A stretch of 64,000 nt of DNA from Escherichia phage Ptacy1532, in sequence record PQ863255.1; one strand, written 5' to 3'. The translations under genes and the position numbers were made by a program. Of this stretch, positions 32,547 through 62,256 are shown in pieces. Position 1 is the first letter of the stretch. Each line of letters starts with the position of its first letter. The notes below the pieces were generated by a model that worked only from the letters and a program-made list of their open reading frames with translations, was not told the origin of the DNA and did no database searches.

Positions 32547-32960
32547 TTATATGAATTTCTGCATACCTTTGATACGAGGGTTATCATCACCAACTCTCGA
32601 TTTACAGTAAGCGATAAAAGATTCAGTATTGAGGTTATCCTTTTGAGAACCCCACTGGAGATTGTCTGCTCTATTGTTGCTCGGATTATCATCCAGATGC
32701 ATAACAACAGCGTTAGGAAAAGGTTTCTCACCATGAAAAGTCTCACACACTAAGATATGAATCCTTTTCTTAAACTTTCTTTTCCTGTTTACAAACACCA
32801 TTCTTCCATCTTTCTCTCTATATCCGCTATATGGTTTTCCTACGAAAAGCCTAACTCCACCATTATTCGTTATGGCTGTGAAAGGCTTAATCTTAACTCT
32901 ACCAAAAGATGATACGGAAAGGAAATCATAATAGGGGTGATCTTTCCAGACTTCTTCCAC
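32547..32960 (-). CDS. HNH homing endonuclease
   Basis: 137 aa; HILVCETFHG...HLDDNPSNNRADNLQWGSQKDN matches HNH_3-type motif. Confidence 0.7.
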   Translation of the reverse strand: MEEVWKDHPYYDFLSVSSFGRVKIKPFTAITNNGGVRLFVGKPYSGYREKDGRMVFVNRKRKFKKRIHILVCETFHGEKPFPNAVVMHLDDNPSNNRADNLQWGSQKDNLNTESFIAYCKSRVGDDNPRIKGMQKFI

Positions 32961-32969
32961 TATCTATCC

Positions 32970-33716
32970 TCAAAATGGGCTATCGTTGTCGTCTTCGTAA
33001 GTAGAAGCAGGCTCTTTATCAATCGTAGGGATTGAAGGAGTAGCTTCTTTCTGTTCTGTTTCAGAAGCACGAGTAATTTCACGACCAGCCAGAGGCATGT
33101 TCTTAGCGTCATTAGCTTGAGTAAGCAGGTTGCGCTGGAACGGGAACATCAGTTGATAGGATGCTACGTTCTCATCGGTTTCAGCATACGGTTCGAAGAA
33201 TACCAGAGGACTACGAGCTTCACCAACTGCTGCACGATATTTGGTTGGGATTGGAGAAATGGTCTTGATGGAGTTTTTAACTTCACCAGCTTTGTTAGTG
33301 TAAGAGTTAACCAGAATGTTAACAGGCTGGCCTAACAGAACATCCTTGAACCAAGACAGATCACCTTTCAGTGCTTGAATACTTGGGTCAATCATCTTGC
33401 AAAGATCAAGAATACCAGAGTTCTTAGCTCGTGGGTTTACATCATAGCTCTTGAACTGGCAAGCCGGACGTGGTTCTAATGCCTTACCATCGGAATCTTT
33501 ACCAGTAGCATCAACACCAATCAGCTCGAAAGCTAAATCCATACGGAAAGCTGGATTCTTAGGAGTTACTGCTTTGGTCTTCGGGTCAATCCAAGGGTCA
33601 CGATTGTGAACACCCAAACCTACTACACGAACGATACGTGCTTCGTACTCACCATCAGGGATTACATCGTAGTTGGATTTACGGGAAGCAGTTGCGATAG
33701 TTGGAATCATAGACAT
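32970..33716 (-). CDS. single-stranded DNA-binding protein (T7 gp2.5-like, putative)
   Basis: 248 aa; acidic C-terminal tail ending EDDNDSPF as in SSB proteins; located in T7-like replication module; AAGGAA SD. Confidence 0.45.
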   Translation of the reverse strand: MSMIPTIATASRKSNYDVIPDGEYEARIVRVVGLGVHNRDPWIDPKTKAVTPKNPAFRMDLAFELIGVDATGKDSDGKALEPRPACQFKSYDVNPRAKNSGILDLCKMIDPSIQALKGDLSWFKDVLLGQPVNILVNSYTNKAGEVKNSIKTISPIPTKYRAAVGEARSPLVFFEPYAETDENVASYQLMFPFQRNLLTQANDAKNMPLAGREITRASETEQKEATPSIPTIDKEPASTYEDDNDSPF

Positions 33717-34132
33717 ATTTTAATTTCCTTATTTAATTTGAAAGATTGTTGCTCTCTTTGAGCGGTTATGTATAGTATACATTACGCTTATACCGATAAG
33801 AGTACTATATAATATAAGTATCTTTGGTAGTAGATATAACACACTAGTAATGTATATATTGTATAGCTGATAAAGTTATTGCAGGCTTGTATATTGGGCA
33901 ATTCACAGAATCCCTTGCAAGTACCGAAGGGCAGGAGCCACCTGCGAGATAAAAATAGAGAATTAAGGAATCCTTGATTTAGGTTGTAGGGACTCCTAGG
34001 GACTTTGATTCTCTATTTAAAAGAATATTAATTACTTATTACCTAAATAATTAACTAACTTACTTAAACCAAATTCAAGAATAATAGATAAAAAGATTAT
34101 TCCTAAGAAAGCTAAAAAGTAAAGGATATAAG
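33717..34132. promoter_or_regulatory. AT-rich intergenic region with promoter-like motifs, palindromes and direct repeats
   Basis: 416 bp non-coding; TAATGTATA on both strands (33848-33856 plus, 33776-33784 minus); palindromes GTATAC, AGTACT, CTTGCAAG; hairpin GCAGG-AGCCA-CCTGC; TAGGGACT direct repeat. Confidence 0.4.
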
Positions 34133-34297
34133 TTACCATTCAAGTAAACCTTTAAAGTTAGTTTGTTCTACTATCCTCTGATAACGAAGATTAGAATCAG
34201 CTTGTTTCTTTAACATCTCATTATATTGATCTCTGATAGAGTCTTTATATACTACAGGTTCTTTAAATAATGAGATCTTGTTCTTTTCTTCTTTCAT
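34133..34297 (-). CDS. hypothetical small protein
   Basis: ORF track 34133..34381; internal ATG at 34297 has AGGAAGG SD and limits overlap with the phosphoesterase gene. Confidence 0.3.
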   Translation of the reverse strand: MKEEKNKISLFKEPVVYKDSIRDQYNEMLKKQADSNLRYQRIVEQTNFKGLLEW

Positions 34298-34766
34298 CAA
34301 AGACCTTCCTAATCTCTTGCAGAGAAACAGCTTTATAGTTAATTTGCTCCATTGATGTACAGAAATATCTCCAATCATCAATTACATGGTTATGAGTATG
34401 AGCATAAATATTAAACTTCCCTCTCATCTCGTCAGTGTGAATAGGAATATGAGTTACCCAAAACTCTTTATATTTATAATCACCAGAGATTCTACGGAAT
34501 ACTTTCATCATATCGGGGAGAAGTTCTAACCTGTCATGGTTCCCCAAGACCAGATGCTTCTCTCCTTTTACTTCAGCGATGATATCAAGGGCATACTTTT
34601 CAAACACCCAATCACCGGTAAAGAAGATTTTATCACGCTTAGTTACATGATCAAATGCAGCTAGGATTGCTTTGTCATGCTCTTCAATGTTTTTAAATTG
34701 CTTACGAAAACTACAGATGTTGCGATGACCTAAGTGACCATCTCCTGCAAAATAAACTTCAGCCAT
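34263..34766 (-). CDS. metallophosphoesterase (calcineurin-like phosphatase)
   Basis: 167 aa; GDGHLGH, TGDWV, GNHD and HTH motifs in canonical order. Confidence 0.7.
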   Translation of the reverse strand: MAEVYFAGDGHLGHRNICSFRKQFKNIEEHDKAILAAFDHVTKRDKIFFTGDWVFEKYALDIIAEVKGEKHLVLGNHDRLELLPDMMKVFRRISGDYKYKEFWVTHIPIHTDEMRGKFNIYAHTHNHVIDDWRYFCTSMEQINYKAVSLQEIRKVFDERRKEQDLII

Positions 34767-34775
34767 AAAGACCTC

Positions 34776-34991
34776 TTAGATAGTGCACCCGTCACAAGTT
34801 AAATCGCCTAGAAGGGATAGAGAAAGTAATCTGGATTGCTCATCACTGTATAGTTGATCAATCTCTTCTTTAAGTTTTGCCAACTCCATGAAATTGATAA
34901 GTTGACCATGTTCAAGACAGTCTGTTTTTAGTATAAACAAAACTTCAGCGTCTGTTGAATCTTCACTTGAATATTTATCAATGTATTCCAT
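34776..34991 (-). CDS. hypothetical protein (71 aa)
   Basis: ORF in operon. Confidence 0.4.
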   Translation of the reverse strand: MEYIDKYSSEDSTDAEVLFILKTDCLEHGQLINFMELAKLKEEIDQLYSDEQSRLLSLSLLGDLTCDGCTI

Positions 34992-35146
34992 TTTTACTCC
35001 TATTAATTATGACCAAGATTTAGCTTTCACTTCGACGTATGTTTTAACTTCACCTTTCAAAACTTCCTGAGAAGCATTTGCACTTTCCTCAGAGTGATGT
35101 ACAACGGTGATCTCTTTCTTTCCAATCTTATAAGTGTGAATCCAAA

Positions 35147-39211: not shown

Positions 39212-39466
39212 TTAAACCCCTTTAGGGAATGGGATGAGATTTTCTACTGCAACACGGAAAGATTTTTCTACGTTCTTATTCTTATAAGAGATAAATTTTC
39301 CATCAGCCCCGCGAAGGAGCACGTTAGTGCGAGCTGTATTTGGGTTTTGTTGAATCATAGAACGAATGATGTTCTCTGAACCTCTATGCTTATTGGTGAA
39401 TTTCCAACTGATAGTTTTACCGGTACGAGTTACATCAATGATATTTACGATTTTTACAATAGACAT
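39212..39466 (-). CDS. hypothetical protein, paralog B
   Basis: 84 aa; tandem paralog of 38926..39210. Confidence 0.45.
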   Translation of the reverse strand: MSIVKIVNIIDVTRTGKTISWKFTNKHRGSENIIRSMIQQNPNTARTNVLLRGADGKFISYKNKNVEKSFRVAVENLIPFPKGV

Positions 39467-39535
39467 AGTTATTACCTAAGAAGTTTAGTTTGGTTTATAT
39501 AAAAGAAAAGGCCACCTGATTAGGCAGCCTTTGTT

Positions 39536-40154: not shown

Positions 40155-40190
40155 TTAGAACTCCTTAATATATCAGTGTACACTAAGGAG

Positions 40191-40199
40191 TATACATTA
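40191..40199 (-). promoter_or_regulatory. TAATGTATA motif, candidate phage promoter element
   Basis: Exact 9-mer on minus strand upstream of gene 39840..40154. Confidence 0.4.
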
Positions 40200-40208
40200 T
40201 AGATGATG

Positions 40209-40376
40209 TTAAAACTCTGCTAAGTACTTAATATCAGAGGCATATACCTCATCAAAGGAAATAACTTCCCCGTTGTAAAGAAGCTCTATTTTCAGTATAC
40301 CAGAGCATTTGGTGTCTTTAGAGTCAACTCTGATAGAGAGTTTATCAACTATATGAGCTTTAATCTCTTCTATCAT
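40209..40376 (-). CDS. hypothetical small protein
   Basis: ORF track 40209..40457; shortened to internal Met to avoid overlap. Confidence 0.3.
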   Translation of the reverse strand: MIEEIKAHIVDKLSIRVDSKDTKCSGILKIELLYNGEVISFDEVYASDIKYLAEF

Positions 40377-45384: not shown

Positions 45385-45658
45385 TATTATCCATTACCTG
45401 CTGGGTAATTACGATGCAGTTCTGTGGGTCTACTGACTTAGAACGCCCCATTTCAGGGTCATACACCTTAACTCGCTTAGCAGTTGAACCTGTAACCTGA
45501 AGAACCTTCAACAGATATCCCTGATTACCAATAGACCAAGCAACAACATCACGATTCTTGATAAAGCGACCAAGCATATCACGATGATAAAACTGTTGCA
45601 TCACCTTGGATTTTGTAATCTCTTCAGTGGGCGGGGCCACTTTACTCAAATCTAACAT
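45329..45658 (-). CDS. hypothetical protein (109 aa)
   Basis: ORF; AAATGTATAT promoter-like variant 40 nt upstream. Confidence 0.4.
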   Translation of the reverse strand: MLDLSKVAPPTEEITKSKVMQQFYHRDMLGRFIKNRDVVAWSIGNQGYLLKVLQVTGSTAKRVKVYDPEMGRSKSVDPQNCIVITQQVMDNIARNVANSVELDGENPNA

Positions 45659-45698
45659 AACTCTCTCCTGTAAAAATACAAATTCTTATTGTACTCTA

Positions 45699-45707
45699 TA
45701 TACATTT
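45699..45707 (-). promoter_or_regulatory. AAATGTATA motif variant, candidate promoter element
   Basis: One mismatch to TAATGTATA; intergenic, upstream of 45329..45658. Confidence 0.3.
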
Positions 45708-45731
45708 GAGAGTTACCATATCTACTACCAA

Positions 45732-45941
45732 TCAGTAATAAATTACTTTAGACATAAAAGAACCCGAGCTAGGGTCTTCGTACCAGCGATGAATGTCAGC
45801 ACTTTTAACAGTTCCTATTAGAGCTTTCATGTTCTTTTTAGCGACACGAGCCTCTTTGCGAGTGTTAAACAGTTTGATATTATCTTTACCTAAGTGTTGT
45901 TTCTGTTCCCAAACAACACGAACAGCCCACATCTTTTTCAT
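45732..45941 (-). CDS. small basic protein, tandem paralog 3 of 3
   Basis: 69 aa; W.VRV...F.TR.EAR..KK pattern and C-terminal YY shared with two upstream genes. Confidence 0.45.
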   Translation of the reverse strand: MKKMWAVRVVWEQKQHLGKDNIKLFNTRKEARVAKKNMKALIGTVKSADIHRWYEDPSSGSFMSKVIYY

Positions 45942-62022: not shown

Positions 62023-62050
62023 AGGGGAAATTCCTTAAAAAGTTATGGCT

Positions 62051-62099
62051 GCGTAGAGGGAATTCCCTACGCAAATTGGGACGCCCACAGAGAGGCGTC
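62051..62099 (-). terminator. tandem hairpins (possible terminator/attenuator)
   Basis: GCGTAGAGGG-AATT-CCCTACGC palindrome (62051-62072) followed on minus strand by U-run; GACGCC-loop-GGCGTC hairpin (62080-62099). Confidence 0.3.
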
Positions 62100-62256
62100 A
62101 TAGTACTAAAAGGAGGAGAGAAGAGGGATTATTTAGCTACCTTTTTCTGTCCATTTACGAACCAGATAATTGAACCGTCAGGCTGTCGTTGACCGAAGCC
62201 TTTTTGGTTAATCATATCGTCATAAGAATATGCTTTACGTCTCATTTGTTTTCCTA

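Follow-up and report, generated by a model that had tools for sequence, protein, structure and literature searches.

Upstream of the gene for the single-stranded DNA-binding protein (SSB) of Escherichia phage Ptacy1532 (PQ863255.1), whose DNA was analysed as one stretch of 64,000 nucleotides (nt; the window), lies an AT-rich gap with two divergent copies of the -10 element that RNA polymerase recognizes in combination with gp36, the sigma factor of the phage. Downstream of the rightward copy follows a conserved block predicted to be transcribed into a structured non-coding RNA. Over window positions 33000-35000 the sequence is 99.8% identical to Escherichia phage vB_EcoP_WFI101126 (whose coordinates minus 512 give those of the window), which places the phage in Kuravirus, one of the three genera of the phiEco32 group or Gordonclarkvirinae, with Suseptimavirus and Nieuwekanaalvirus. 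As far as about 28.5 kb the plus strand carries the late genes; the middle and early genes follow on the minus strand. The gap is situated among replication genes, the genes around it are all on the minus strand, and the replisome genes of the window are T7-like (a Pol A with thioredoxin, a gp4-like primase-helicase and a 5'-3' exonuclease).

A preceding sequence-only reading had taken 33717-34132 (416 bp) to be non-coding. This is correct for 33717-34031 (315 bp), whereas the right end encodes on the minus strand a 35-residue single-pass membrane peptide (34032-34139), the homologue of phi32_41 (phiEco32 gp41) and PQC57_gp038 in WFI101126. Even at 315 bp the gap is the longest non-coding stretch of the window, as had been stated, the next largest measuring 234 bp and below; the second-largest apparent gap, 62023-62256, is a 234-bp stretch without a minus-strand open reading frame (ORF) of at least 40 residues. 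The description as AT-rich holds too: the region has 29.8% G+C and the window 42.3%, and of all 416-bp segments in the 64 kb the 15 poorest in G+C start within 33701-34081.

Divergent gp36 promoter elements

The sequence tAATGTAtA is the experimentally defined -10 element of RNA polymerase with phiEco32 gp36, and transcription starts 6-8 nt downstream of it (PMC4281155, PMC8948821). Six gp36 promoters are published, the late promoters P6, P13 and P26 and the middle promoters P40, P58 and P68; for the gp36-dependent middle promoters of phiEco32, PMC8948821 cites Pavlova 2012. All six can be located in the window, at 1079 (+), 8594 (+), 23980 (+), 33783 (-), 40198 (-) and 45706 (-). According to a cryo-electron microscopy study of 2025, gp36 reads -14A, -13A, -12T and -11G, and its C-terminal domain contacts -37G and -34A, in an open complex described as built on a middle promoter (PMC12276001).

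The two copies of TAATGTATA in the gap had been noticed in the sequence-only reading and lie, in divergent orientation, at 33776-33784 (-) and 33848-33856 (+), 72 bp apart. Exact copies occur five times in the window compared with 0.61 expected, and none of 100 shuffles reaches five. They are genuine promoter elements, but those of the host polymerase working with the phiEco32 sigma factor gp36 and not those of a phage polymerase of the T7 type (PMC8948821, PMC12276001). The minus-strand copy is the -10 element of P40, the known gp36-dependent middle promoter of the SSB gene, and is listed for phage SU10 as 'aagcgtaatgtatactatacataaccgctc... between CDS37 and CDS38'. Upstream of it, positions -39 to -34 of P40 (ATAGTA, 33803-33808) match the P68-type -35 element only partially. 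Three palindromes pointed out earlier are present, GTATAC (33775), AGTACT (33801) and CTTGCAAG (33914), but they are not independent signals: the first lies within the P40 -10 region, the second overlaps the P40 -35 region and the third is the 3' arm of the hairpin H2 described below.

In front of the plus-strand copy stands a -35 element, TTGGTAGTAGATA (33824-33836), which puts G33826 at -37 and A33829 at -34 relative to G33852 at -11. The 26 nt from -37G to -11G equal the spacing in P68. As an exact 12-mer, TTGGTAGTAGATA is found in the window only here and in P68 (45719-45730, minus strand), and the two-element pattern is expected 0.00 times by chance. The likeness to P68 thus comprises the -10 element TAATGTATA (aAATGTATA in P68), an identical -35 block, the same placement of -37G and -34A, and a purine 7 nt after the -10 element. 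In the rightward promoter this purine is A33863, the predicted start of the plus-strand transcript, at which the conserved hairpin H1 begins.

For comparison the locus was aligned in 23 sequences from the three genera and from metagenomes; the IMG/VR and JGI metagenomes, searched for added diversity, contributed 4 and 5 loci, mostly of already-known isolates. Both elements of the rightward promoter are fixed in this alignment, except that the -35 element of ES17-type phages reads TGGTAGTATATC, while the 10-11 nt separating them differ freely among phages. Fixed elements around a free spacer are the pattern expected of a working promoter.

Unlike the published gp36 promoters, the rightward one is not upstream of any middle or late gene; it fronts no gene at all and is oriented opposite to the direction in which every middle and early gene is read, which also sets it apart from P68. 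The plus-strand copy is absent from the SU10 list and from the table of six promoters (phiEco32, NJ01, ECBP2, KBNP1711, SU10 and 172-1), and the genome records inspected contain no plus-strand annotation in the gap. Its status as unpublished refers to later papers that restate the promoter set rather than to the original phiEco32 papers. On the basis of the accessible literature and annotations, we conclude from the sequence pattern that the plus-strand copy is a gp36 promoter not described before, the seventh and of the P68 type (middle, gp79-activated), and that the gap contains two back-to-back gp36 promoters, the published P40 leftward and an unannotated one rightward. A plus-strand transcript very likely starts here.

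Nowhere is the locus less conserved than in the AT-rich spacer between the divergent promoters (33785-33823), whose identity is about 65% where that of the RNA exceeds 90%. ES17-type phages (ES17, myPSH2311, EcK-vB and SDYTW1) have an insertion of about 140 bp exactly between the two promoters, which carries an annotated 47-residue ORF, ES17_37 (ES17 locus 1197-1425). To the left, the leader of the SSB messenger RNA (33717-33769, minus strand) would start at A33769, 7 nt after the P40 -10 element in keeping with the published 6-8 nt rule, and contains an AAGGAA ribosome-binding site. Just downstream of this start, the leader hairpin GCTC-TCTTT-GAGC (33751-33763) is invariant but for a change in the loop in KBNP1711 and Bas89, and might serve SSB as an operator of translation or as a stabilizing element. 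The SSB itself (phiEco32 gp40 homologue; 32970-33716, minus strand) has 248 residues with an acidic ...DDNDSPF tail, is 100% identical to phi32_40 and is annotated as ssDNA-binding protein in Ptacy1479. The plus-strand GC skew of 33001-34000, mostly SSB gene, is +0.089, and that of each neighbouring minus-strand kilobase -0.12 to -0.27. An HNH homing-endonuclease gene (32547-32960, minus strand) separates the SSB gene from that of an Rz-like spanin, likewise in WFI101126; in phiEco32 gene 39 directly follows gene 40 with no HNH gene between, and the gene beside the locus looks like a mobile insertion.

The predicted RNA and its hairpins

The block downstream of the rightward promoter, 33863-34020 on the plus strand (about 158 nt, or about 185 nt in phages with the cassette B described below), retains 90-97.5% identity in phages that match the window at only 79-82% in the SSB coding sequence. 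Conservation runs from the promoter to about 34020, the foot of hairpin H4, and the flanks on either side are variable or replaced outright, the right one by unrelated sequence in Paul-, ECBP2- and LAMP-type phages. Conservation in related phages, which had been put forward as a check, is therefore seen for the promoter and for 33863-34020, but not for the inter-promoter spacer and the right flank. Indels of 1, 1, 2 and 1 nt among relatives, together with zero plus-strand ATG codons, show that the block is non-coding; as had been observed, the plus strand is free of ATG throughout 33857-34140, and the rightward copy faces no plus-strand gene for 280 nt.

A search with the non-coding sequence matched 98 phage records, all of Escherichia or Shigella phages of the phiEco32 group, and the SSB protein likewise retrieves 98 records at 80% identity or more. 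Taking both sets as the same genomes, the element looks universal in Gordonclarkvirinae. It is absent upstream of SSB in Grimontviridae, in Lahexavirus and in three uncultured contigs (67-70% SSB identity), where the gap is short or different, and these distant relatives yielded no covariation data. About 150-165 bp upstream of SSB the three contigs carry AGCTA/AAGCTA repeats (GCATCTAGCAAAGCTAGCATATCAAAGCTAAGCTAAGCTATATGC) and lack TAATGTATA; their promoter or operator system is probably another one. Phage 7-11 lacks both gp79 and middle promoters (PMC8948821), which suggests that the element is part of the same innovation of the phiEco32 subgroup as the gp79-activated middle promoters. Rfam gave no hit anywhere in the window at the gathering threshold, and at E values up to 10 both cassette types returned only noise (CRISPR-DR47, tp2, AfaR, RsaA and CopA; best E at least 1.4). 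A scan of the window for transfer RNAs and transfer-messenger RNA found none, and the 3' module of the RNA was not found in one genome per GTDB species.

The RNA at 33863-34020 is predicted to fold with a minimum free energy of -45.8 kcal/mol (z = -2.3). Consensus folding of the alignment with RNAalifold favours the plus strand (-40.0 compared with -29.7 kcal/mol for the minus strand), as do the mean single-sequence energies (-45.0 compared with -37.9). Six G.U positions across H1, H2 and H4 become A.C mismatches if read on the minus strand.

The 5' hairpin H1 (AUAGCU-GAUAA-AGUUAU, 33863-33879) begins exactly at +1. Three of its six pairs take several standard types (CG/UA/AU, UA/GC and GC/GU), and 97.9% of all cells are paired. 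Neither this percentage nor the covariation score is matched by any of 500 shuffles, slid registers collapse, the fold of H1 has z = -4.6, and its G.U pair is valid on the plus strand only. It is followed by H2 (33885-33922), a variable central hairpin that we term cassette A, between the flanks UUGCA (33880-33884) and ACCGRAAGG. Twelve phage records, including ES17, MN05, myPSH2311 and ECBP2, have in place of cassette A an unrelated stretch of 66 nt, cassette B, bordered by these flanks as well (UUGCA and ACCG(G)AAGG). The fold of cassette B consists of two hairpins, each closed by CGG/CCG; one of its pairs changes from UA to CG, a compensatory change, and another from UA to UG. The distribution of the cassettes is mosaic across genera, which points to recombination. 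Matches of cassette B in 82 Vibrio ICP1 records were traced to one 28-nt, 89% match inside an exonuclease gene (E = 0.6) and discarded as chance.

H3 (33931-33945) is the hairpin GCAGG-AGCCA-CCUGC already recognized from the sequence; its sole variation is C/A in the loop, and its 3' arm could alternatively pair with UUGCA (33880-33884) and so close the cassette. By eye, four GGA motifs were counted in the 158 nt; as they are not clearly above the expectation from composition, the idea of a CsrA sponge was set aside. Further downstream, the direct repeat TAGGGACT is present at 33987 and 33997 as described before, but the sequence-only reading had missed the inverted repeat around it: 33953-33966 and 34005-34018, 14 nt each and 93% complementary, close a 66-nt hairpin that encloses both repeats. 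In this irregular hairpin, H4 (33953-34018), the repeats (33987-33994 and 33997-34004) constitute the loop and the 3' arm. Its energy on the plus strand is -23.5 kcal/mol (z = -3.3); two G.U pairs lengthen the stem on this strand only, and the indels of Paul-type phages are located at unpaired positions. A role of TAGGGACT as an iteron was rejected, with four copies in the window compared with 1.95 expected and four reached by 12 of 100 shuffles.

H4 is also strongly folded on the minus strand (-18.2 kcal/mol, z = -3.7), where it starts 13 nt past the gp41 stop codon and is directly followed in the RNA by an invariant U tract (UUUUUAU, 33949-33955). The membrane peptide gene is the last gene of the convergent P68/P58 operon in the window phage. 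It is conserved as a protein (MVTYILYFLAFLG... compared with MVTYAFLLLAFLG... in Bas89), has been lost from Paul-, ECBP2- and LAMP-type phages or given way there to other sequence, and overlaps with its ATG the TAA that ends the gene before it (ATGgTAA, 34133-34139), which suggests translational coupling. As a terminator of this operon H4 has an AU-rich stem base and a large loop, and the genome records carry no such annotation. A simple scan for sigma-70 promoters and terminators gave results not above shuffles and called no terminator at H4, because the loop exceeds 8 nt. Judged from structure and position, H4 and its U tract probably mark the end of the P68/P58 operon, either as an intrinsic terminator or as a 3' hairpin of the RNase III type, and H4 is likely to be the 3'-end hairpin of both convergent transcripts.

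Function of the transcript and rival readings

We tentatively favour the reading that the RNA of about 158 nt is a free-standing, functional, structured non-coding RNA and not an origin transcript or a by-product, with a confidence that falls somewhat short of even. A small non-coding RNA was one of two functions suggested at the outset, and the comparison lends it support: the promoter is kept while its spacer varies, the conserved block behind it ends with a 3' hairpin, H1 shows compensatory changes, folding favours the plus strand and indels break the frames. From the middle phase onward, the rightward promoter would start the RNA at about A33863. The RNA would open with a hairpin at +1, a feature known elsewhere to slow 5'-end-dependent decay, continue through the exchangeable central domain (cassette A or B) and then a conserved linker and hairpin, and end in or just past the 66-nt H4, whose opposite strand with the U tract would close the P68/P58 operon. 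Through its invariant loops and linkers it might act on a partner, protein or RNA, for which the cassette would provide the specific module. We infer promoter firing, the end of the RNA, its accumulation and its function from the compared sequences.

Several observations weigh against this reading. Two experimental studies report only six gp36 promoters, although both looked upstream of genes. The high identity of the block could partly reflect recent recombination, as the mosaic pattern indicates, or a function at the DNA level such as an origin. The pairs of H2, H3 and H4 are invariant and provide no covariation evidence for or against the fold, and in Bas88 a substitution of C for T in H4 agrees better with the fold of the minus strand. 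In contrast to typical stand-alone small RNAs, no U tail follows H4 on the plus strand (the sequence reads UUUAAAAG, UUAAAAUC or AUUAAAAG), which leaves the 3' end undefined and means that some polymerases should run on. Nor is a partner apparent: E. coli genomes have no similarity to the RNA at E < 0.01, in a search whose range did not extend to short host seeds, and complementarity to the rest of the window is limited to matches of at most 11 nt, the level of chance.

The main rival, which we consider unlikely but by some way the most serious, is that the locus is a transcription-primed or transcription-activated replication origin, the other function suggested at the outset. A gp36-dependent middle-phase transcript would pass or pause at H4 and enter easily melted DNA, where an R-loop would form or its 3' end be extended by the T7-like replisome; divergent transcription from P40 and the rightward promoter would underwind the AT-rich spacer between them, and the RNA body would be a pre-primer fold like that of ColE1 RNA II or represent recognition sites in the DNA. 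The DNA behind H4 suits this proposal. The tract 34021-34132 has 19.6% G+C, with an A-rich, G-poor plus strand, and 34008-34107 is the least stable 100-bp stretch of the 64-kb window (stacking energy -103.2 compared with a mean of -131.6, s.d. 5.8; 4.9 s.d.). The second least stable, 33766-33865, lies on the other side of the RNA, which is thus flanked by the two least stable stretches of the window. Among the next least stable are 45650-45749 (P68), 40164-40263 (P58) and a stretch that closely precedes an annotated terminator, 39410-39509. The 100 nt past H4 have 19-29% G+C (at most the 0.8th percentile) in each of four unrelated types of flank, whether these are coding or non-coding, and on a plus strand without a U tail polymerases should enter this tract. 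The position of the locus in the largest gap of the window, amid replication genes, and the T7-type replication mode suggested for these phages in the literature also speak for an origin. In T4, oriF and oriG combine a middle promoter that depends on a phage factor with an AT-rich downstream element, and the free sequence of the flank here resembles the oriF unwinding element, which can be replaced by heterologous ones (PMC3016281).

The architecture fits less well. The T4 minimal origin measures about 100 bp in total (PMC3016281), whereas here a conserved, structured stretch of 158 nt separates promoter and AT tract, and the least stable DNA does not adjoin the promoter but begins at +146 to +160. 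Apart from the two 8-mers, iterons are absent. The RNA made from the tract would be A-rich and G-poor, a composition unfavourable for hybrid stability and hence poor for a persistent hybrid. Cumulative GC skew, for which gene orientation is the dominant influence, has its peak at the meeting point of the converging gene blocks, about 28.5 kb, and does not turn at 34 kb, and forks from 34 kb would meet nearly all transcription head-on. The compensatory changes in H1 point to selection for stability of an RNA, and sister clades with the same order of replication genes lack the element in front of SSB. Put in its most specific form, the proposal would be a kuravirus origin gated by the phage sigma factor: RNA polymerase with gp36 (and gp79) would make a ColE1-like pre-primer that H4 delivers to meltable DNA, and the exchangeable cassette would tune firing or compatibility in co-infection. 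We regard this version as a speculative one, marginally less probable again.

Should the locus instead act only in cis, the convergent promoter and the shared hairpin would set the end of the P68/P58 operon. Plus-strand polymerases and the antisense RNA would then stop or destroy leftward read-through into the SSB-sigma operon, by collision and by RNase III cleavage of the duplex, much as lambda oop RNA does with cII mRNA. The rightward promoter shares both its -35 and its -10 element with P68 of the facing operon and should be co-regulated with it; H4 and the U tract stand 13 nt behind the last stop codon of that operon, and the overlap of the two RNAs has to comprise at least the 66 nt of this hairpin, which is strongly structured on both strands. 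However, an antisense pair is complementary whatever its sequence, and this leaves the almost complete invariance of loops and linkers, the two discrete cassettes and the compensatory changes in H1, a 5' stabilizing hairpin, unexplained. The last gene of the facing operon, moreover, varies among phages while the RNA does not. As an account of the whole locus we find such an operon-end device improbable.

Still harder to credit is that only minus-strand features function (P40, the SSB leader, and H4 as terminator or RNase III hairpin), with the plus-strand TAATGTATA silent or fortuitous and its conservation due to recombination. This would agree with a published set of six gp36 promoters that all precede genes, with an H4 and U tract fully explained on the minus strand, and with the frequent recombination evident from the mosaic distribution. 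A full two-element promoter expected 0.00 times, invariant around a free spacer in three genera, is difficult to reconcile with a silent site, as are an H1 that starts at the predicted +1, covaries and contains a G.U pair valid on the plus strand only, and the better conservation of 33863-33950, a segment with no assigned minus-strand role, than of the SSB gene. A small protein in the gap, from a 32-codon TTG ORF (33879-33977, plus strand) or the minus-strand ORFs 33729-33842 and 33788-33901, can practically be set aside: ORFs of 32-37 codons are listed mechanically and 4E8 annotates a 64-residue minus-strand coding sequence in its version of the gap (locus positions 1517-1711), but indels of 1 and 2 nt, the cassette swap and the 140-bp insertion break every frame across relatives, and the plus strand has zero ATG.

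phiEco32 is a model for how a phage retargets host RNA polymerase with a sigma factor of its own, gp36, and a dual-function cofactor, gp79, and its promoter map has been taken as six gene-proximal promoters. The candidate seventh matches the -10 and -35 elements as well as P68 does and points at no gene. If it is active, the sigma switch would also control a conserved non-coding RNA or a replication origin, a missing element of the infection programme. The two exchangeable cassettes offer a natural handle for genetics, and the locus is a concrete candidate origin for these therapeutically used coliphages.

Comparison with known systems

Among phage RNAs, the pRNA of phi29 is a phage-encoded structured RNA of about 170 nt from a prolate-headed podovirus. 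The likeness is in size only: kuraviruses have a conventional large terminase, no complementary loop pair is seen in the predicted RNA, and its predicted timing is middle phase. Small RNAs of the Hfq type have a rho-independent terminator with a U tail, which the plus strand lacks. The oop RNA of phage lambda, about 77 nt long, is transcribed from its own sigma-70 promoter against the main operon, ends in a hairpin, overlaps the 3' end of a convergent message and acts on cII mRNA. The predicted RNA resembles it as a short RNA with its own promoter, opposed to the main operon and with a hairpin end that overlaps a convergent message. It differs in its length of about 158 nt and its gp36 promoter, and in that the facing gene varies while the RNA is invariant with an exchangeable internal cassette.

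With respect to an origin, the RNA II pre-primer of ColE1 is a structured transcript of host polymerase whose fold decides events at a downstream site, as that of the predicted RNA would. The predicted RNA has no sequence or Rfam similarity to it (a CopA-like match has E = 5.4), no antisense partner promoter was found, and no G-run/C-run hybrid motif is visible. The primary origin of T7 consists of the phi1.1A/B promoters and an AT-rich segment; the kuravirus locus likewise has a predicted promoter followed by AT-rich DNA, in a genome with T7-like replisome genes. In contrast to the origins of T4 and T7, about 158 nt of conserved, folded sequence with 40% G+C intervene here between promoter and AT tract, the polymerase would be that of the host with a phage sigma factor, orientation and position are unfavourable with respect to transcription, and the locus is known from sequence alone. 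What it shares with oriF and oriG of T4 is the basic arrangement, a (here predicted) middle promoter dependent on a phage factor followed by very AT-rich DNA that is free to vary in sequence.

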